From sequence record MF547662.1: a stretch of DNA of 64,000 nucleotides. The stretch is one strand, 5' to 3'. The position numbers and the translations under genes were made by a program. Positions within the stretch are counted from its first letter, which is position 1; every line of letters starts with the position of its first letter. Under the pieces are notes generated by a model that saw nothing but the letters and a program-made list of their open reading frames with translations, ran no database searches and had not been told where the DNA came from. Below are positions 25 through 25,865 of this stretch, piece after piece. Source of the stretch: Clostridioides phage LIBA6276.

Positions 25-3000
25 TTGCCAGGAAATATGGTTCAAGCATTAAATGAGCAATTTGCAAATGCTTTTACAGGAGACAATGCTCCTGAAATCA
101 CACCTAGTGTAAATGGAGAAAAAGCTAAAAAGGAATTAAAAGAGTTAGAAAAATTCAAACAAGATACTTTTAAATCAGATAAAATTGTGACTGAAATTAA
201 TAATAAAGGACTAGATTTCGCAAAAAAAGACTTGAGTGTATTAAAAGAACAGTTGGATAGATTTAAAAATGAAGATACAAAGTTGTCTTTTACTACAGAT
301 TGTGCAGATGCTTTTAAAGATGTAAATTCTTTAGAGGAAGCTAGAAAAAAAATATCTGCTCCAATGAGTTTAAAATATGATATAGATGTAGATAAAAAAG
401 GATTGACTGAAGCAAAAAAAGTCTATGATATTTTACCTGATAATCTCAAAAAAAAGATAGAAACAGAAGTAATAGGTATAGATAAATTAGACACATTACA
501 AAACTTAATAGATAAAGCTCCAAATAAAAAAGAAACTATATTTGAAATAATTAATAAAAATCCAGATAAGCTAAATGAGATAGATGAAATTCTTAATAAC
601 GTTCCAAATGATAAAAAGGAAGCTGTTATTGATTTTATAGTAAATAATTTAGACCAACTTGAAAAAGCTAAAAATGTACAAGAATTTATAAACAATTTAC
701 CTCCAGAAATAAAAAAACAACTTGGAATAGAAGTTGAAGGAGGAGAAAATGCAGAGAAAACTGTTAATACAGTTCAAAATGCAGATGGAACTAAGGCTGA
801 CCTTTTAGTAAATGCAGAAGTAAATGGAGAATCACAAGTAGTTGAATGCATAGAAACATTGGATAAGAATGGTAATAAAACATACACTCCTAATTTAAAT
901 CCTCAAGTTAATAATAGTGAAAAAGTTGTTCAGTGCATGAGAATATTAGATGAATATGGAAATGAATCTTATATTCCAATTGTAAGTCCTCAAGTTACTA
1001 ATGAAGAAGGGCTTAACAGTACTAAACAAAAAATGGATGAGTTAGATAATAAAACAGTAACTTCAACTGTACAAATAAAGACAGAAGGAGAAACTGAAGT
1101 TGAACAAGCAACCAATTTTATAGAAAATACAAATCCAACTAAGGTTATTGAGTTATCCATAAACAACTCTGGTAAAGATGAAATTGACAATACAAAACAA
1201 AAGTTAGATGAACTTAATAATGAAAAAGCCACTCCTACTATTGAAGCTACAGGTGCAGAACAAGCATCCAAACAATTAAATCAATTATCACAAAAAGCAC
1301 AAGAAATTGGGCAAGGTAATTATCATATAAATGTTAGTACTTCAACTGAACAAGGGGCTAAGAATATTTCAGGACTTATAGCTAGAGTAAAACAATTCTT
1401 AGCTTTGAAAGTATCTACACTTGTATTTAGAACTGAAACTGCACAAGCAGCAAAAAATGTATCAGGTTTGTTAGCCAAAGTACAAAGTTATGTTAGCCGA
1501 TATGGTGGAAAAACTATAAAGACTACATTTAGTGCATTAACTGCAACTGCTGCAAAGAACATATCAGGGCTTATTAGGAAAATAGAGTCATTTAAATCAA
1601 ATTATGCAGGAAAAACATTCACTACTACATTTGTAACTAATAAAGTGACTAATAGTTCTGGTGGTGGAGGAGGAGGAAATAGTTCAGATAAGACCAATAA
1701 AACTGAACGTACCTCTGTTACTAATGTAACTCCAATTCCAGCTAATCTATTAGCTCAACCTAGAACATCAGAACCAGCACCAATAAGTGACGAAACTCCT
1801 GTAACACCAAAACCATCCTTATTCTCAAGAGCAGTATCAAGAGCCACATCCGCTTTCAAAGTAATCAAACCTAAAGTTACAATAAACAATGACACAATAG
1901 ACTCATCTGTAAAATATAGTATAGAATTATTTAAAGAGTTAGAAAATGCTATATCAGCAGTAACAAATGAAATAGCTCTATTAGACAAAAAAATGGAACA
2001 TGCTACAGGTGATGAGAAGATTAAATACTTACAGGAGCAAAATAAATTATTTGCTCAACAAAAAGATTTAATAAAACAACAACAAGATGGATATAAAGCT
2101 GAAAGTAACAGACTTAAAAATAGATTAAAAGAAAAGAAAATGGGCTTTAAGTTTGATGATACTGGAAATCTAACTAACTATGAAGAAAAGTTAATATCAA
2201 TAGAAAAAGAATTAGACAAATTAAATTCAAAGTCTGGTGACAAAGAAAATAAAAAAGATGAATCCAGAAAAAAAGAGTTGGAAGAAACTAAGAAAGTCCT
2301 TGAAGAATATATTAAAGTTACATTTACAGAACTGCCTAAATGTGAGCAAGAATGGGAAGAATACAATAATAAAATTAAAGAACACAATGAGGAGTTAAGG
2401 AAAGCACAAGAAGAAATGTGGAAACTTAATAAGAATTCCACATGGACTTCTATGTACAAAGATGTAGAGCAAGTAAATAATGAAATAGCAATGATAGATG
2501 TATTACTTAAAAATGCTACAGGTGATGAGCAGATAGAGTTGTTAGAAAAGAAAAAAGAGTTAATGGCCAAGAAGGCTAAAGAACTATCTGAAACAACAGC
2601 ATATCTTCAAGAAACACAAAAAGAGCTACAACAAAAGCTACAAGGCTATGGATTTACATTTAGAGATAATGGCGATATAACTAACTTCATTCAACATAAA
2701 AATCAACTTAAAAAGAACATGACTGATGAAGAATTTAAGAGAATGGAAGAGGCAGCAGAGGGATATTTGGATTTATTGATAAATAAAATACCTGATGCCA
2801 ATAAGGAAATTGCTGAATCTAAGGAAGAAATTGAAGCATTAAATAAAGAAATTCAAGATGCTTATAAAGACCAGCTTAAAGAAGCTCAAAGCCTACAAGA
2901 AAAAATTAGAGACATGTATAAAAAAGAGCTTGAAGAGAGACTTAAAGAAATAGATAAAGAAACTAAAGCTAAAATTGATTCTCTTAAAAAGCAACAAGAT

Positions 3001-3723
3001 GCTTACAATGATTCAAGAAAAGAAGCCAAATATAAAGATGATTATGAAGAACAACAAGATGTAATAAGTGATTTAGAAAAACAAATAGCAATAGCTGAAA
3101 GAGATAGTTCTTTAAGTGGTCAGAAGAAACTTAAAGATTTACAAAAACAATTAAAAGAAGAACAGAAGAAATTACAGGATTTAGTACAAGACCATGTAGA
3201 CGACCAAGTTAACGATATGTATGACAAGGAATCTGACAGACTACAAGAAGAAGCAGATAAGTTAAAAGAAGAGTTAGAGAAAAAATACTCAGATGAAAAT
3301 TTAGTTGATTTAATTAATGAAGCAATTTCAAGCGGTAAATTTGTAGGTCTTGATGGAGAGGTTAAGAAACTTCAAGATGCTATTATTGAATACATAAATA
3401 AATATGAAGATGGTATGTTGGCAATGGGTTCTGTCACTAAGCAGGAATGGCTCGATAGATTAAAAGAAGGTAAAGAGACATTAGAAGATATTAATGACAT
3501 ATTGGATGAATTAGATTTAAGTAAATTTGCTATGCCTAATTATAATCCTCCTTCAAATTCTCGTTCAAGAAGTACATCTCCAATATCAGCAGTTAATTAT
3601 AATTCACCATTTGTTGTTGTACAAGGGAATGTAACTAAAGATGTAATGCCTGAATTTGAAAAGAAGATGAGGAAAATGATTGAAGAAAATAACAAAAAAA
3701 TTATTTCTAATACTAGGTCTTAA
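25..3723 (+). CDS. tail tape measure protein (frame stays open to nt 1, so the 5' end is probably outside the window)
   Basis: 1232-aa K/E-rich coiled-coil ORF with three ~38-aa internal repeats (AKNISGLIARVKQF / AKNVSGLLAKVQSY / AKNISGLIRKIESF) and a G6 linker; lies upstream of the Dit/Tal-like genes. Confidence 0.7.
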   Translation: MPGNMVQALNEQFANAFTGDNAPEITPSVNGEKAKKELKELEKFKQDTFKSDKIVTEINNKGLDFAKKDLSVLKEQLDRFKNEDTKLSFTTDCADAFKDVNSLEEARKKISAPMSLKYDIDVDKKGLTEAKKVYDILPDNLKKKIETEVIGIDKLDTLQNLIDKAPNKKETIFEIINKNPDKLNEIDEILNNVPNDKKEAVIDFIVNNLDQLEKAKNVQEFINNLPPEIKKQLGIEVEGGENAEKTVNTVQNADGTKADLLVNAEVNGESQVVECIETLDKNGNKTYTPNLNPQVNNSEKVVQCMRILDEYGNESYIPIVSPQVTNEEGLNSTKQKMDELDNKTVTSTVQIKTEGETEVEQATNFIENTNPTKVIELSINNSGKDEIDNTKQKLDELNNEKATPTIEATGAEQASKQLNQLSQKAQEIGQGNYHINVSTSTEQGAKNISGLIARVKQFLALKVSTLVFRTETAQAAKNVSGLLAKVQSYVSRYGGKTIKTTFSALTATAAKNISGLIRKIESFKSNYAGKTFTTTFVTNKVTNSSGGGGGGNSSDKTNKTERTSVTNVTPIPANLLAQPRTSEPAPISDETPVTPKPSLFSRAVSRATSAFKVIKPKVTINNDTIDSSVKYSIELFKELENAISAVTNEIALLDKKMEHATGDEKIKYLQEQNKLFAQQKDLIKQQQDGYKAESNRLKNRLKEKKMGFKFDDTGNLTNYEEKLISIEKELDKLNSKSGDKENKKDESRKKELEETKKVLEEYIKVTFTELPKCEQEWEEYNNKIKEHNEELRKAQEEMWKLNKNSTWTSMYKDVEQVNNEIAMIDVLLKNATGDEQIELLEKKKELMAKKAKELSETTAYLQETQKELQQKLQGYGFTFRDNGDITNFIQHKNQLKKNMTDEEFKRMEEAAEGYLDLLINKIPDANKEIAESKEEIEALNKEIQDAYKDQLKEAQSLQEKIRDMYKKELEERLKEIDKETKAKIDSLKKQQDAYNDSRKEAKYKDDYEEQQDVISDLEKQIAIAERDSSLSGQKKLKDLQKQLKEEQKKLQDLVQDHVDDQVNDMYDKESDRLQEEADKLKEELEKKYSDENLVDLINEAISSGKFVGLDGEVKKLQDAIIEYINKYEDGMLAMGSVTKQEWLDRLKEGKETLEDINDILDELDLSKFAMPNYNPPSNSRSRSTSPISAVNYNSPFVVVQGNVTKDVMPEFEKKMRKMIEENNKKIISNTRS

Positions 3724-3824
3724 TATATGTAATTGGTCTTTATTTATTATTCACTCATTTACTTACGTTTTATAATTTATAGTCAGATTTTTTTTGAAAA
3801 TATATATTTATCTAATAAAAAATA

Positions 3825-3855
3825 TTGTTTATAAAAAACGTATTTATGATATAAT
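3825..3855 (+). promoter_or_regulatory. sigma-A-type promoter (TTGTTT-19-TATAAT) for the antisense RNA of TA module 1
   Basis: hexamers read from the sequence; the 19-nt spacer is long. Confidence 0.3.
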
Positions 3856-3928
3856 AGTAATATAAATGATATAAATTTATATCATAAAGACATAAAAAAA
3901 GAGACTACAACTATTTGTGCTAGGGTGT
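3851..3928. repeat. ~80-nt conserved block, copy A (repeated at 4381-4458)
   Basis: ataatagtaatataaatgatataaatttatatcata is identical over 36 nt, then ~90% identical through gagactacaa...agggtgt. Confidence 0.85.
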
Positions 3929-4003
3929 CTCTTCATAAATAAGCGAAGTGTTAATTAGAGGAAGAATCACCTGAATTGCCGTTCGGGTGATTCTTAATTT
4001 TTT
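3860..4003 (+). ncRNA. candidate type I antitoxin antisense RNA 1
   Basis: runs from the promoter at 3825-3855 to an intrinsic terminator at 3962-4003; convergent with the minus-strand toxin ORF and overlaps its 3' end (3951-4003); ~80-nt 5' block nearly identical to 4381-4458. Confidence 0.4.
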
Positions 4004-4130
4004 GCAACGTTTTCTTAAACTCATCTATTTCTTTAAAGAGTCTATTTAAATTCTGAACCAACTTAATCAAACTAATAATTATAGTTGTAAGAAATGTTAT
4101 TATCGTTAACAAACAAATTAGATATTTCAT
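3951..4130 (-). CDS. small hydrophobic toxin-like protein, 59 aa (MKYLICLLTIITFLTTIIISLIKLVQNLNRLFKEIDEFKKTLQKIKNHPNGNSGDSSSN); candidate type I toxin
   Basis: ATG at 4130 with GGAGG upstream; single predicted TM helix plus charged tail; absent from the ORF track (below 60 aa); paralogue at 4491-4652. Confidence 0.55.
   Translation of the reverse strand: MKYLICLLTIITFLTTIIISLIKLVQNLNRLFKEIDEFKKTLQKIKNHPNGNSGDSSSN
3962..4003 (+). terminator. rho-independent terminator of antisense RNA 1
   Basis: aagaatcacc...ggtgattctt stem followed by aatttttt. Confidence 0.6.
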
Positions 4131-4188
4131 AATATCATATCACCTCCCCTCTTGATTTGACATGGGAAGGCTTATGTATATGAAGATT

Positions 4189-4267
4189 CACCCTAATAGT
4201 TTTTTTATGTAGTCTCTAAAAATATTATACCATAAATTACCAATATGTTAAATTTAATATTATATTG
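4189..4267. repeat. ~80-nt conserved block, copy A' (repeated at 4696-4774); candidate toxin-1 promoter and 5' UTR region on the minus strand
   Basis: tcaccctaatagt...gtagtctctaaaaatattataccataa..ccaatatgttaaatttaatattatattg is shared; contains tggtataat on the minus strand. Confidence 0.8.
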
Positions 4268-4355
4268 TCTACAATTGTAAAAGAATATTGTGTTCTAAGA
4301 AGTTATTCTATTAATAGTATAGCTTTTTTATTTTTCAATGAAGATAATGACAACA

Positions 4356-4385
4356 TTGACTATTTTGATAATATTGGAGTATAAT
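4356..4385 (+). promoter_or_regulatory. promoter TTGACT-18-TATAAT for antisense RNA 2
   Basis: good consensus hexamers. Confidence 0.45.
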
Positions 4386-4458
4386 AGTAATATAAATGAT
4401 ATAAATTTATATCATAGGGACATAAAAAAGAGACTACAAACTATTTGCTGTAGGGTGT
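4381..4458. repeat. conserved block, copy B (matches 3851-3928)
   Basis: direct alignment of the two copies. Confidence 0.85.
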
Positions 4459-4545
4459 AGTTCTTAAAGTTAACAATAAAAAGAATAGATTTATGTATTA
4501 CTTTCAGAATCACTAGACCCGCCAGTCTGGTGATTCTTTAGTTTT
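4392..4545 (+). ncRNA. candidate type I antitoxin antisense RNA 2
   Basis: promoter at 4356-4385 and terminator at 4506-4545; overlaps the toxin-2 3' end (4491-4545). Confidence 0.45.
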
Positions 4546-4652
4546 CTAATAGATGCTTTCAAGTTTAAGATTGCATCTATTAGCTTTGTCAAATGATTGA
4601 TTATTCTTGTAATCATAATTATCATTATTAAAAACAAAACTAAGTACTCCAT
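4491..4652 (-). CDS. small hydrophobic toxin-like protein, 53 aa (MEYLVLFLIMIIMITRIINHLTKLIDAILNLKASIRKLKNHQTGGSSDSESNT)
   Basis: ATG at 4652 with GGGGTGAG upstream; TM helix plus KLKNHxxGxSxDS tail shared with the 3951-4130 protein. Confidence 0.55.
   Translation of the reverse strand: MEYLVLFLIMIIMITRIINHLTKLIDAILNLKASIRKLKNHQTGGSSDSESNT
4506..4545 (+). terminator. rho-independent terminator of antisense RNA 2
   Basis: agaatcactagac / gtctggtgattct 13-bp stem followed by ttagtttt. Confidence 0.6.
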
Positions 4653-4695
4653 AGTCTCACCCCCTTTCTTACTGGGGATTTTAACTAAAGAGCCA

Positions 4696-4774
4696 TCACC
4701 CTAATAGTCTAAACTGTAGTCTCTAAAAATATTATACCATAATTTTCCAATATGTTAAATTTAATATTATATTG
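4696..4774. repeat. conserved block, copy B' (matches 4189-4267)
   Basis: direct alignment of the two copies. Confidence 0.8.
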
Positions 4775-4852
4775 ACGACAGGAGTAGAATAAAGATATAA
4801 TACAGATAACAGAAAATTTAAAAATTTTACATAAGAATTACTACTTATCTAT

Positions 4853-4877
4853 GCCACCTTAAAAAGTGGCTATTTTT
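4853..4877 (+). terminator. small hairpin followed by a T-run (gccac-N8-gtggc tattttt)
   Basis: seen in sequence; no obvious upstream + strand gene. Confidence 0.25.
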
Positions 4878-4910
4878 CTATTCTGGTATATATTTAAGGA
4901 GGTGTTACAA

Positions 4911-5066
4911 ATGATAAATAATATAGAAGATTGTAAGCTTCTTATTGAGGCAGAAATAAGAATGAAAGATATAGATGAAAAAGAACTAATATCTCAAAGG
5001 GAGATTCTGAAAGACCTAAATATTAATGAAAAAGACCTTGAAGATATTGAAGTGAATTTTGAATAA
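4911..5066 (+). CDS. small acidic hypothetical protein, 51 aa (MINNIEDCKLL...)
   Basis: AAGGAGGTG RBS 5 nt before the ATG at 4911; the track ORF 4866-5066 starts upstream with no RBS. Confidence 0.45.
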   Translation: MINNIEDCKLLIEAEIRMKDIDEKELISQREILKDLNINEKDLEDIEVNFE

Positions 5067-5167
5067 TGAAATGATTTATAATATACCTATTTTAAATATG
5101 TATTAGTTGATATCAGTAATCGTCTTTATCTAGTGATTTTTTATTTATTAACTGTAAACGAATCTGT

Positions 5168-5195
5168 TTTACAAAAAACGTATCTGTGGTATAAT
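5168..5195 (+). promoter_or_regulatory. promoter TTTACA-16-(TG)gTATAAT for antisense RNA 3
   Basis: extended -10 motif tgtggtataat. Confidence 0.45.
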
Positions 5196-5201
5196 AAAAG
5201 T

Positions 5202-5307
5202 AAGGAATTTAATCTACTTAATACAAAGAGTGATTGTTTCCTTAAAGTTAATTAAAAATTAATTTATCTTTTGAAACCACTCTTATTGGCGTCTGAGTGG
5301 TTTTTTG
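5202..5307 (+). ncRNA. candidate type I antitoxin antisense RNA 3 (~105 nt)
   Basis: promoter at 5168-5195, terminator at 5274-5307; overlaps the toxin-3 3' end (5264-5307). Confidence 0.45.
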
Positions 5308-5380
5308 CTTTATCATATATGTAACAAGCTATTAAACTTGTTGCAATATTTAGGCAAATATTAAACACTACTGTTTCCAT
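5264..5380 (-). CDS. small hydrophobic toxin-like protein, 38 aa (METVVFNICLNIATSLIACYIYDKAKNHSDANKSGFKR)
   Basis: GGAGGTGAATTT-ATG; paralogue of the 25552-25683 ORF (shared YIYDKxKxHSxAxKSG motif). Confidence 0.55.
   Translation of the reverse strand: METVVFNICLNIATSLIACYIYDKAKNHSDANKSGFKR
5274..5307 (+). terminator. rho-independent terminator (aaaccactc...gagtggttttttg)
   Basis: stem-loop plus a U6 run. Confidence 0.6.
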
Positions 5381-5582
5381 AAATTCACCTCCTTATAAAA
5401 AAATAAAGCGAGGCTCACCTCCTTCCTTTGAAGAAGTAGGCTAAATACAGAAACAACCACTCTTAGCACTTTCGATTTAAAATTCCTTACTATACTAGAT
5501 TATACCATAATTTTACAATTAATAAAATATTTTAGCTCATCTTAATTGATGGGCTTTTCTAATACAAAGAAGGTGATAAAAT

Positions 5583-7298
5583 ATGCATTTTAATGTGAAT
5601 CTTAAACAGATAAAATCTGATTACACATTAACCATTCACAAGATGAACAAATCATTTTTAGGTCAAATTCCAATCAACTTTTTAAACTCGATAAAGCGGG
5701 AGCTTGGTGGAGTAGATGAAATACAACTGACCATTCCAAAATATATTACAGATAGATTTTTATTTAATAAAATAATAAATCCCATTTTTGAAGAAGTAAA
5801 AGAAGAACGTCTTATTTGTCTTAATAATAAAGAGTACTTTGTAATTAAGAATGTTGTAACAACAGATGATAAGTTAAAAGTAGTAACAGCTAAATCTAAA
5901 GAAGTTAAACTAGGAAAAATTGATGTGAATATTGAGGACTATGGATTACAGATGTTTACCAAAGATGAAGAAGCATCTATTATATCTCTTAATGATTATT
6001 TAAAACAAGAGACAGGCTGGAAACTTGGTTATGTGGATGATTCAATTGCTTATGAAACTGATAGTGAAGGTAATAAGAGAGAAAAGGTAAGATGGCAAGA
6101 AAGTATTAATTCTAACTGGTTAGACTATTTTAATAATGAACTAAAAGAACAATTTGAATGTATAGCTGATTTTGATACTTATAATAATTTAGTTAATTTG
6201 TATCATATAGATAGTTTTGGAGATAACATTCAGTTATATTTATCTCATGATAACTACATAAAATCACTTGAAAGAACTACAAATAGTGATGATATAGTAA
6301 CTAGACTGAAGCTTGAAGGTAGTGAAGATATGAATGTAATAGGAGCTACAGTTACAGGATATGATTACATTGAGAACTATTCTTATTTCTTAGACAATAA
6401 AGAAATGAGTGAAGAACTTAGTAGAGCTATAAAGAAATACCAAGAAATGAATGAAATAAGAGAGCCAATTTGGAGAGAACTAATAGATACAAAGCTTAAG
6501 AAGCAAAGAGAACGTGATAGTAAAAGCAACGAATGGCAAATGGTAATAGAGATGATAAGTAAGAAAAAAGATATAAAAAAGACATATGATAATCCACAGC
6601 ATAAAGATGAAATAAATTCAGCTAAAATAGCAGTAGAGATAAGTGAACTAGAAGATAAAAAAGTCATATTGGATGTTCAAATAAAACATTTAGAAGAAGA
6701 AATAGCTAAGTTAAATGAAAGTATAAAAGATATAAATATTCTTTGTAAGAGGGAGACTTCAACTGATGAGGATGGATATCTAATATTTAATGAGGTTCTA
6801 TTAGATGAATTAAATGAGTTCCTCTACTATGACACTTATACAAATGATGCTTTTTTAAAAGTTGAAGATTTAATAGCAGAAGGTAAAAGGCAATTAAGTT
6901 TGAAATGTATTCCAACACGAGAATGGACTCTGGATGTTATAAACTTCTTAGATAGAATTATAGATATTAATTTTAGACAGCATTGGAAGGGTGATTTGAG
7001 CTTAGGAGATATTATAGTGTTACATAGCAAAGAATCTAAAGAAGAAGAATTAGTATATTTTACATCTTTTACCCAGAATTTAAAAAACGGGAAGTTAGAT
7101 ACTTTAGAATTAACTTTAAGTAATAAAAAAATAAAAGAAGATGACAAAAGAACTATAGCTGATTATTTGACTAAAGCTGAACACGCAACAAGAACATTGA
7201 ACTCTAAAAGACATTTATTTATTCAGCAACAGAAGAAAAGAATTAACCTACCAGATGAATATATTCCTAAGAAAAATATACAAAAGGAGTTGATGTAG
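5583..7298 (+). CDS. phage distal tail protein (Dit-like) or tail family protein
   Basis: 571-aa ORF with a good RBS; position follows the tape-measure gene; no diagnostic motif seen. Confidence 0.4.
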   Translation: MHFNVNLKQIKSDYTLTIHKMNKSFLGQIPINFLNSIKRELGGVDEIQLTIPKYITDRFLFNKIINPIFEEVKEERLICLNNKEYFVIKNVVTTDDKLKVVTAKSKEVKLGKIDVNIEDYGLQMFTKDEEASIISLNDYLKQETGWKLGYVDDSIAYETDSEGNKREKVRWQESINSNWLDYFNNELKEQFECIADFDTYNNLVNLYHIDSFGDNIQLYLSHDNYIKSLERTTNSDDIVTRLKLEGSEDMNVIGATVTGYDYIENYSYFLDNKEMSEELSRAIKKYQEMNEIREPIWRELIDTKLKKQRERDSKSNEWQMVIEMISKKKDIKKTYDNPQHKDEINSAKIAVEISELEDKKVILDVQIKHLEEEIAKLNESIKDINILCKRETSTDEDGYLIFNEVLLDELNEFLYYDTYTNDAFLKVEDLIAEGKRQLSLKCIPTREWTLDVINFLDRIIDINFRQHWKGDLSLGDIIVLHSKESKEEELVYFTSFTQNLKNGKLDTLELTLSNKKIKEDDKRTIADYLTKAEHATRTLNSKRHLFIQQQKKRINLPDEYIPKKNIQKELM

Positions 7299-25463: not shown

Positions 25464-25494
25464 TTGTTTTAATATTCTTAATTTGTGGTATAAT
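25464..25494 (+). promoter_or_regulatory. promoter TTGTTT-19-(TG)gTATAAT for antisense RNA 4
   Basis: same architecture as the promoters at 3825 and 5168. Confidence 0.4.
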
Positions 25495-25500
25495 AAAAGC

Positions 25501-25622
25501 AAGGAAACATATTTTACTTAACTTTGAGTGATGTTTCCAAACTAAATTAGTTTATTTGGATTTTCTTTGGAACTTAATATTAAGTTCCCAGCCACTCTTA
25601 GTCGCGTTTGAGTGGCTTTTTA
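25501..25622 (+). ncRNA. candidate type I antitoxin antisense RNA 4
   Basis: promoter and terminator present; overlaps the toxin-4 3' end (25552-25622). Confidence 0.45.
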
Positions 25623-25683
25623 ATTTATCGTAGATATAACTAGCTATAACACCAGCTATAATACTCATCATTAGATTTTCCAT
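25552..25683 (-). CDS. small hydrophobic toxin-like protein, 43 aa (MENLMMSIIAGVIASYIYDKLKSHSNATKSGWELNIKFQRKSK)
   Basis: AAAGGAGGTG RBS 8 nt upstream of the ATG at 25683; paralogue of the 5264-5380 ORF. Confidence 0.55.
   Translation of the reverse strand: MENLMMSIIAGVIASYIYDKLKSHSNATKSGWELNIKFQRKSK
25590..25622 (+). terminator. rho-independent terminator (agccactc-N12-gagtggct ttttt)
   Basis: seen in sequence; homologous to the 5274-5307 terminator. Confidence 0.6.
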
Positions 25684-25865
25684 AGTTTTTCACCTCCTTT
25701 CATAAGAAAGTGAGGAAATTTCTATGGAAACACCACTCACAGCTTTTTCAAATATTTATTCCTTGCTATGTTTATTATATCATAAATATTGGAAATATAA
25801 AATTTTAATATTTTCTAAAATCTGACGCTTTAAACGCCATTCTAAGGCTTTATAAAAATTTACCT

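Follow-up and report, generated by a model that had tools for sequence, protein, structure and literature searches.

In this study, we analysed a 64,000-nucleotide stretch of the genome of Clostridioides phage LIBA6276 (MF547662.1; hereafter, the window). The segment at 4355–4775 is probably a complete, self-contained type I toxin–antitoxin (TA)-like cassette, the second of two paralogues in a hitherto unannotated family. In each of the two cassettes (modules 1 and 2), a toxin-like open reading frame (ORF; T1 or T2) faces a putative gene for an antisense RNA (AT1 or AT2). Three hallmarks of type I systems appear here: a small hydrophobic ORF (<60 aa) with a promoter-like sequence and a putative ribosome-binding site (RBS), a candidate cis-encoded antisense RNA whose sequence overlaps that of the toxin mRNA, and a modelled toxin mRNA fold that would sequester the RBS. 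The architecture is that of the type I TA systems of Clostridioides difficile, and the toxin family is new. On the same reading, the near-identity of two blocks shared by the modules reflects their RNA and promoter functions as well as their use as crossover points, with the cassette shuffling, duplication and deletion that result.

Paralogous modules and their repeat blocks

Module 2 is a copy of module 1 (3828–4270), and the two are homologous along the entire unit (~67% identity over 433 nt). Their start-to-start spacing is 530 bp measured at block A and 507 bp at block B. Block A (3851–3928 and 4381–4458) is 92.5% identical with gaps (74/80; 64/78 ungapped) and includes a perfect run of 36 nt (3851–3886), while block B (4189–4267 and 4696–4774) is 89% identical with gaps (72/81), its longest ungapped perfect run being 28 nt. 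The toxin coding sequences share 59.6% of nucleotides and 39–44% of amino acids, and identity is ~50–55% in the Shine–Dalgarno (SD) region and in the stretch from block A to the antisense terminator. A preliminary description of this DNA had reported a complete second TA-like module about 530 bp downstream of the first, two blocks of about 90% identity with a 36-nt perfect core, both toxin ORFs and their divergence, and all of these points are borne out.

Calling the blocks RNA regions, as that description did, captures part of their content, since they also contain the antisense −10 box and the whole toxin promoter. Block A, like the homology between the modules, begins precisely at the −10 box and continues with the antisense RNA start, a 20-nt palindrome, an A-run and a segment whose complement is the terminator and tail of the toxin mRNA. 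Block B takes in the first ~29 nt of the toxin leader, the entire promoter and a further 16 nt. Block A also houses the terminator of the toxin mRNA itself, which is conserved rather than diverged and compensated, so the statement that both terminator stems have diverged holds for the antisense terminators and not for this one. It had also been considered that the blocks might belong to a longer element unrelated to small ORFs. They do not recur elsewhere in the window, where only weak AT-rich matches of ≤33 nt were found. In 20 related loci, the blocks enclose a T1 or T2 ORF, with one exception. This exception (L030:680–810 in NC_017177.1, a 300-kb plasmid of C. difficile BI1; also in CP061362.1) is an AT1-like antisense gene, complete with promoter and terminator, that adjoins only the last ~22 codons of a T1-like toxin; the alternatives are a module in decay and an orphan "anti-addiction" antitoxin.

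The positions of the predicted elements are listed in Table 1. In a promoter scan, the toxin and antisense promoters of modules 1 and 2 and of a third module downstream were among the highest matches (10–11/12), and most are TG-extended. Their positions in the three successive modules are exactly those that a convergent gene pair requires. Six terminator-like sites were found against 0.2 expected, and those on the + strand lie inside ORF 3′ ends. AT2 consists in order of a 5′ hairpin, an A-rich linker, a stretch complementary to the toxin-2 mRNA tail and the terminator, and it is perfectly complementary to the last ~125 nt of the toxin-2 mRNA. In the module variant m16, the stem of the palindrome is kept through a U-A to C-G double change and one G·U pair.

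Table 1 Positions of cassette elements and adjacent genes in the window
Feature	Position	Strand	Remarks
Tape-measure gene	25–3723	+	
AT1 promoter	3828–3855	+	
AT1 RNA (predicted)	~3862–4003	+	
AT1 terminator	3962–3995	+	
Toxin T1 ORF	3951–4130	−	59 aa
Module 1 SD and anti-SD	4140–4149; 4164–4170		SD, GGGGAGGUGA
Module 1 toxin promoter (11/12 consensus matches)	4251–4224	−	
Module 1 toxin mRNA (predicted)	~4217 to 3890	−	
AT2 promoter (predicted)	−35, 4356–4361; −10, 4380–4385	+	TTGACT and TATAAT; 11/12 consensus matches
AT2 antisense RNA (predicted)	4392–4546	+	~155 nt; ends inferred from promoter and terminator; fold prediction
AT2 5′ hairpin	4396–4415	+	Perfect 20-nt palindrome; sequence identical to 3866–3885 in AT1
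AT2 intrinsic terminator hairpin and T-tract	4506–4537	+	Within the last toxin-2 codons (KNHQTGGSSDS)
Toxin-like ORF T2	4491–4652	−	53 aa; hydrophobic N-terminus, amphipathic charged helix, KLKNH...SDS tail
Toxin-2 SD	4664 to 4656	−	GGGGGUGAG; pairs with upstream anti-SD AUCCCC, 4679 to 4674
Toxin-2 mRNA (predicted)	4421–4724	−	~304 nt; 5′ untranslated region (UTR) ~72 nt
Toxin-2 promoter (predicted)	−35, 4758–4753; extended −10 ending at 4731	−	TTAACA and TGgTATAAT; 11/12, TG present; in block B
orf51 promoter	4772–4801	+	Own promoter; −35 at the end of block B
orf51	4913–5066	+	phrog_13860, unknown function
Module 3 span	5168–5518		Inverted repeat found
AT3 promoter	5168–5195	+	
Module 3 terminator	~5275–5303	+	
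T3 ORF	5264–5380	−	38 aa
Module 3 toxin promoter	5518–5489	−	
Next tail gene	5583–7298	+	
Module 4	25489–25775		T4 ORF 25552–25683 (−), 43 aa

Predicted closure of the toxin mRNA

The leader portion of block B recurs in inverted orientation in the 3′ portion of block A. Consequently, the 5′ end of the toxin mRNA (AGAGACUACA...UAGGGUG...) and the 3′ tail of the same molecule are complementary, and the leader sequence is present a second time in the antisense RNA. The first 10 nt of the toxin-2 mRNA (4724 to 4715) pair with the tail (complement of 4429–4438) to form a closing helix, AGAGACUACA/UGUAGUCUCU. In the minimum free energy folds of both toxin mRNAs, the 5′ end is closed on the 3′ tail and the SD lies within an anti-SD hairpin, with fold z-scores of −6.1 (module 1) and −8.0 (module 2). 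The SD is thereby predicted to be hidden in a local hairpin, with a probability of being unpaired of 0.23–0.25 in minimum free energy and ensemble folds (~0.23 in module 2). The anti-SD pairs differ in sequence between the modules (CCUUCCC/GGGGAGG in module 1 and AUCCCC/GGGGGU in module 2), and an anti-SD is visible by eye in relatives. The leader:tail duplex of toxin 2 has a predicted energy of −36.7 kcal/mol (z = −7 against shuffles). The same 5′–3′ closure is predicted for modules 3 and 4 of the window, which are unrelated in sequence. When the four leaders were matched with the four tails, the best partner of each leader was its own tail (z −5 to −10.5 against shuffles).

The covariation analysis across relatives that the preliminary description had called for was carried out on both the closing helix and the antisense terminator. 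Among 18 leader and tail sequences, 99.4% of the cells in the closing helix are paired and 7/10 pairs show compensatory changes. None of 500 column shuffles reached the observed values, and pairing dropped to 36–58% when the register was slid. Seven G·U cells against one mismatch on the toxin mRNA strand point to a pairing constraint on that strand. The formal covariation analysis covers the 10-bp closing helix, because MAFFT left the second and third leader:tail helices out of register across subfamilies; the extended leader:tail pairing is backed by per-sequence duplex predictions. The earlier argument for selection on RNA function is therefore sustained for the closing helix and, as described below, for the antisense terminator. 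Since the blocks also hold promoters and act as crossover points, such selection is only part of the story.

An antisense terminator within the toxin C-terminal codons

The two antisense terminator hairpins, each followed by a T-run on the + strand, share identical outer 8–9 bp and differ in their inner 4–5 bp, which include two double (compensatory) changes. Each stem contains one G·U pair on the + strand, which is a C·A mismatch on the − strand. The preliminary description had called both hairpins perfect despite compensatory divergence; the compensatory inner changes are confirmed, and "perfect" applies only on the + strand and with the G·U pair allowed. Covariation among 11 sequences revealed compensatory changes in 8/13 pairs, with many G·U pairs, on the antisense strand, and the hairpin is more stable on this strand in 11/11 loci. 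In the T1-type variants, all changes in the hairpin are confined to the loop, which is a candidate specificity or kissing determinant.

The toxin tails (KIKNHPNGNSGDS and KLKNHQTGGSSDS) do match the pattern KxKNHxxGxSxDS that had been noted earlier. The KNH and (G/S)DS elements of this pattern are encoded by the two arms of the antisense terminator stem (AAGAAUCAC...GGUGAUUCU). In one relative (L032), the arms are GAAAUCGUC...GACGAUUUC and the peptide reads RNR...DDF. Because the arms change compensatorily and the peptide changes along with them, the conserved tail is at least partly a by-product of the antisense terminator, and it loses its standing as independent evidence for selection.

Toxin peptides and breadth of the family

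T1 and T2 belong to phrog_5620 ("unknown function"; E=5.7e-23 for T2). Both have a strongly hydrophobic N-terminus (maximum Kyte–Doolittle value over 15 residues, 2.7–2.9), a charged amphipathic middle and a Ser/Asp-rich end. The C-terminal half contains 4–6 Lys and Arg but also 2–4 Asp and Glu residues, and its Ser-rich tail is uncharged or acidic; over its full length, the peptide carries a net charge of +2 to +4. The NCBIfam model NF047374 (CD_typeI_toxin; curated cutoff 60 bits) did not match T1 or T2 even at E<=10, and an Rfam search of 3000–6500 on both strands (E<=1) returned no match. The toxin ORF is intact in 22/23 module variants and in 12/13 T2-type variants. In one T2 copy (module m12, L007:6950–7344), the start codon has changed from ATG to ATA and the antisense gene is intact; the toxin of this module may be inactivated.

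A word-indexed protein search with T1 and T2 retrieved four close clusters only, and a genome contig scan retrieved one locus, so the family seemed restricted to phiCD211-like phages until an exhaustive hidden Markov model (HMM) search was made. This search and its follow-up yielded ~20 clusters of proteins of 44–62 aa, with a few longer ones from extended ORF calls, sharing the motif L(K/R)xS(I/L)(H/Q)KL(K/R)N(H/R)P(D/N)G..(S/D)D. Members were found in C. difficile chromosomes, in other Clostridioides, in Clostridium faecium and in metagenomes, and the remote T2 homologues match with E-values of 1e-7 to 1e-20 at 25–40% identity. The possibility that the ORFs are spurious and that the DNA encodes small RNAs only was rejected because frame, length and hydrophobic N-terminus are kept at this level of identity. 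Nine relative loci were fetched and inspected for RNA layout. In all of them, a TATAAT-type promoter (mostly TG-extended) precedes a leader with complementarity to the tail, and an anti-SD and a hairpin within the last codons are also present. In the eight loci examined by eye for it (L035 and L043 were left out), the opposite strand has a TATAAT-type −10 immediately past the toxin terminator; this −10 is TG-extended in four of them, as in module 1.

Homology between the T1/T2 family and the family represented by T3 and T4 of modules 3 and 4 was considered and is not established; the similarity consists of the KxK(N/S)H stretch alone, which is encoded by a terminator arm. CD1663.2/n00610 of C. 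difficile 630 has been described as a "divergent" small protein of 59 aa with an antisense RNA near CRISPR 9 (PMC5961336, PMC6563280). CD1663.2 might be a member of the T1/T2 family. We found no published description of the T1/T2 family in the literature covered, outside which the main phiCD211 paper (Garneau et al. 2018) lies.

Proposed mode of action and specificity

We propose a pathway in which a strong sigma-A-type promoter would drive a toxin mRNA of ~300 nt for the 53-aa hydrophobic peptide, and the closed 5′–3′ fold would keep this mRNA stable and poorly translated. The antisense RNA, leader-like in sequence, would bind the tail and displace the leader. The long duplex would be a substrate for RNase III, and the freed mRNA 5′ end would be open to RNase J or Y. 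If the phage-plasmid were lost, the short-lived antisense RNA would decay first and the toxin would be made. Such post-segregational killing on episome loss is suggested by analogy with phiCD630-1, whose type I TA pairs stabilise that prophage and also plasmids (PMC7699646). Antisense binding was modelled by forcing the overlap to be unpaired. In module 1, the probability that the mRNA 5′ end is unpaired then rose from 0.04 to 0.84; the corresponding values for module 2 are 0.03 and 0.59. Since the SD is hidden in both states and the 5′ end is freed, leader displacement and duplex formation leading to RNase attack are the most likely action of the antisense RNA.

The predicted duplex energies are −199 and −215 kcal/mol for the cognate pairs, −81 to −88 kcal/mol for the non-cognate T1/T2 pairs and −40 to −48 kcal/mol for unrelated pairs. 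The overlap regions of T1 and T2 have a 16-nt perfect word in common, and the two toxin mRNAs are almost the same over ~35 nt at the 3′ end. In other C. difficile pairs, only cognate or near-identical antitoxins give rescue (PMC5961336, PMC7699646). Together with the differing loops and inner stems, this cognate-only rescue makes it plausible that T1 and T2 are insulated from each other, as the idea of non-cross-reacting pairs implies.

These elements can be assembled into a more specific picture: a distinct, hitherto unrecognised Gram-positive type I TA family of Clostridioides and relatives, in which a leader-mimic antitoxin acts not on the RBS but on the 3′ tail of a 5′–3′ locked mRNA, where it displaces the leader strand and unlocks the mRNA 5′ end for decay, the terminator dictates the KNHP...GDS peptide, and terminator loops and inner stems insulate T1 from T2, with recombination "handles" in common through which phage-plasmids shuffle cassettes. 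We offer this picture tentatively, as less likely than not to hold.

Several observations weigh against a type I TA function. Toxicity, RNA expression and neutralisation are all inferred for the T1/T2 family. Modelled antisense binding leaves SD accessibility unchanged (~0.2 in both states), and the step from an exposed 5′ end to decay is drawn from predicted unpairing. Within each toxin type sequence variation is low, so the covariation signal comes mostly from distant relatives. Neither T1 nor T2 had a significant match in scans against Pfam, NCBIfam and PADLOC. An hhalign comparison of their family with the canonical family of T3 and T4 aligned 8 columns at a probability of 1.4%, and their Ser/Asp-rich tail differs from the Lys-rich tail of known toxins (PMC7699646). 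Promoter-like hexamers are also common in DNA of 27% GC (29 found against 16.8 expected).

Alternative explanations

The likeness of the flanks could be mainly a DNA-level phenomenon, in which recombination or gene conversion swaps cassettes at the "handles", the cores are older diverged alleles and selection on RNA is secondary; we give this explanation an even chance. From 20 phiCD211-like loci, 23 distinct modules were extracted, and only the two toxin types T1 and T2 occur among them. The arrays between the tape-measure and tail genes take the forms T1-T2-orf51-T3, T1-T2-T3, T2-T1-T3, T2 only, T1 only and T3 only. The sequence upstream of the antisense −10, including the −35 region, tracks array position and not toxin type: T2 modules in first position (m2, m4 and m9) have the upstream sequence of module 1 in the window. 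The right end of block B (TTGACGAC, which contains the −35 of the orf51 promoter) likewise tracks position in m3, m17 and m22, and m9 is a chimera of a T1-type block A and a T2 core. These position-tracking flanks, the chimera and the variety of arrays identify the blocks as crossover points. The start of homology exactly at the antisense −10 box fits such exchange, and cores at 39–44% amino acid identity between flanks of ~90% are hard to obtain from one recent duplication. Function is nevertheless compatible with exchange, as the blocks hold promoters and a helix that covaries in distant relatives lacking these blocks. No clear homogenisation of block polymorphisms within genomes was seen, and the AAAGAC/AGGGAC/AAGGAC variants are not grouped by genome. 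The ~90% identity of the blocks probably owes something to homologous exchange or gene conversion, beside their promoter and RNA functions. Each cassette is also found alone, which indicates that each is self-sufficient.

Two further explanations were considered. In one, which we regard as improbable, the likeness between the antisense 5′ region and the leader is a DNA inverted repeat, an operator pair for a regulator of both promoters, with the palindrome as another site. Inverted repeats flank the toxin gene in all four modules, and AT1 and AT2 have a perfect 20-bp palindrome at ~+4 to +23. However, the changes in the helix are mostly to G·U on the toxin mRNA strand (7 wobbles against 1 mismatch), which fits pairing in RNA and not symmetry in a DNA site. 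The leader-like segment is also unequally spaced from the two promoters, at ~+1 in the toxin mRNA and at ~+35 in AT1 and AT2, and relatives without the palindrome still keep the helix. Slightly less probable still is that the small ORFs encode ordinary phage membrane proteins, such as holin-like or superinfection-exclusion proteins, and that the antisense promoters arose by chance in AT-rich DNA, where promoter-like hexamers are frequent. A remote member, P0031 of Clostridium faecium (L031:3001–3156), is named "Holin" in UniRef, and some relatives lie 1–2 kb from holin or amidase genes at prophage ends. Yet no Pfam family backs this name and the P0031 locus has the full TA-like RNA layout, T1 and T2 have no Pfam holin match, and other relatives sit beside unrelated chromosomal genes. 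Within the window, the cassettes adjoin tape-measure and tail genes rather than an endolysin gene, and they lie on the strand opposite to these genes with promoters of their own. Moreover, the opposite-strand −10 and the in-ORF terminator recur in the inspected relatives, and the terminator covaries on the antisense strand. A type I TA-like cassette remains our preferred reading.

Genomic setting and other cassettes

A gap of 1.86 kb separates the tape-measure gene from the next tail gene in this phiCD211-like phage. Both cassettes are situated there, opposite in strand to the structural genes. The region 3700–5600 is 100% identical in Clostridioides phage LIBA2945 (MF547663.1) and 97.5% identical in phiCD211, phiCDIF1296T and AR1086-1. 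The phiCD211-like phages are siphophages of ~130 kb with 26–27% GC, and PLSDB deposits of such elements are C. difficile plasmids of ~130 kb. They have been reported as extrachromosomal DNA, and ~5% of C. difficile genomes are reported to carry phiCD211-like phage-plasmids (PMC6127314). The reported count is ~149 such prophages in 2,584 C. difficile genomes. Two IMG/VR contigs (L023 and L024) have ~2 kb of additional DNA between the tape-measure end and the T1 cassette, which is further evidence that the tape-measure/tail junction is an insertion hot-spot.

The + strand of the gap (3724–5582) contains five terminator-like hairpins (3962, 4506, 4853, ~5275 and 5534). Late-operon transcription could cross the gap only with antitermination. 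The read-through RNA would be antisense to each of the three toxin mRNAs and is possibly a means of silencing the toxins during lytic growth. The hairpin at 4853–4870 is in the 5′ UTR of orf51 and could be an attenuator or a separate small RNA. In phiCD211, a + strand "hypothetical protein" (PHICD211_28023, 34 aa) is annotated over the AT2 promoter and 5′ region. The mechanical ORF that matches it in the window (4338–4460, +, 40 aa) is probably not a real gene. The records of LIBA2945 and AR1086-1 have no annotated feature under the T2 ORF match.

Judged by their sequences, modules 3 and 4 fall within or near the canonical C. difficile type I toxin family. Against NF047374, T3 matches with E=5.2e-7 and 30 bits, and T4 with E=7.3e-15 and 55.1 bits; both values are below the 60-bit cutoff. 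Module 4 has a convergent antisense promoter (−10 at 25489–25494), an in-ORF terminator and the same leader:tail pairing. Module 3 is truncated in phiCD211, phiCDIF1296T and AR1086-1 and is the sole cassette in phage ES-S-0173-01. Stretches of the promoter regions are common to modules: 29 nt at 86% between AT1 and AT3, and 21 nt at 95% between T2 and T3.

Significance and comparison with known systems

The small genes of phiCD211-like phages are poorly annotated, and the ORFs described here are "hypothetical" or uncalled. An extra type I TA family beside the canonical one would help to explain how a 130-kb episome is maintained. T1 and T2 would also add counter-selection toxins, and toxins of this kind have already been used for mutagenesis of C. 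difficile (PMC7699646). The covariation gives a testable model for the long-lived, "tightly folded" type I toxin mRNAs of this species, and the terminator shows how RNA structure on one strand can, as a by-product, conserve a peptide motif encoded on the other. The type of system, the tandem paralogy and the probable cognate specificity all have clear precedents.

The closest are the type I TA systems of C. difficile prophages and chromosomes, among them CD2517.1-RCd8, CD2907.1-RCd9, CD0956.2-RCd10 and CD0977.1-RCd11 (Maikova 2018, PMC5961336; Peltier 2020, PMC7699646), which share the host species and the location on mobile elements. They have hydrophobic toxins of 34–59 aa, convergent transcripts overlapping at their 3′ ends, sigma-A promoters and several paralogous modules per element, and their RBS is sequestered, likewise by prediction. 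The RNA sizes are similar: the values predicted for modules 1 and 2, respectively, are ~140 and 155 nt for the antisense RNA (134–150 nt measured in C. difficile), ~327 and 304 nt for the toxin mRNA (~300 nt), 87 and 72 nt for the 5′ UTR (83–88 nt) and ~114 and 126 nt for the 3′ overlap (131–134 nt) (PMC5961336, PMC7699646). T1 and T2 differ from these systems in falling outside NF047374 and in having a Ser/Asp-rich rather than a Lys-rich tail. In addition, no CRISPR array or cyclic di-GMP riboswitch adjoins the T1/T2 cassettes; a C. difficile CRISPR repeat had no match in the window, which is a weak negative. To our knowledge, and in the literature covered, a 5′–3′ closing helix has not been reported for C. 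difficile type I TA systems.

The zorO-orzO/zorP-orzP and ibs-sib systems of Escherichia coli are also tandem toxin/antisense duplicates with conserved regulatory parts and few discriminating nucleotides. They are cited in PMC5961336 as lacking cross-repression, and they provide the precedent for the preliminary description's idea of paired, non-cross-reacting modules. Their antisense RNAs target the 5′ UTR or the whole ORF and not a 3′ overlap, and they are unrelated in sequence and belong to Gram-negative hosts.

In hok/Sok of plasmid R1 and aapA1/IsoA1 of Helicobacter pylori, the toxin mRNA is locked by a long-distance 5′–3′ interaction, and the antisense RNA targets the 5′ region of the 3′-processed mRNA. 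The modules described here resemble them in the helix between the extreme 5′ end and the 3′ end, which covaries in our alignment, and in SD sequestration. They differ in that the antisense RNA would compete with the leader, its complement being the 3′ strand of the closing helix itself, and they are unrelated in sequence. No mok-like frame was found in the T1/T2 modules, whose antisense RNA overlaps the 3′ end of the toxin mRNA and not the leader.

The par locus of Enterococcus faecalis pAD1 (Fst/RNA II) and bsrG/SR4 and txpA/RatA of Bacillus subtilis share with the T1/T2 modules a Gram-positive host, convergent genes whose transcripts overlap at their 3′ ends, a shared hairpin at which the antisense RNA terminates, and a prophage or plasmid location with a role, proposed for T1/T2, in element maintenance. 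In par, direct repeats confer complementarity on the RNA 5′ ends. The repeats of the T1/T2 modules are inverted, so that the antisense RNA resembles the leader rather than complementing it. The hairpin in the T1/T2 modules is also distinct in being optimised for the antisense strand only, where a G·U pair corresponds to a C·A mismatch on the opposite strand.

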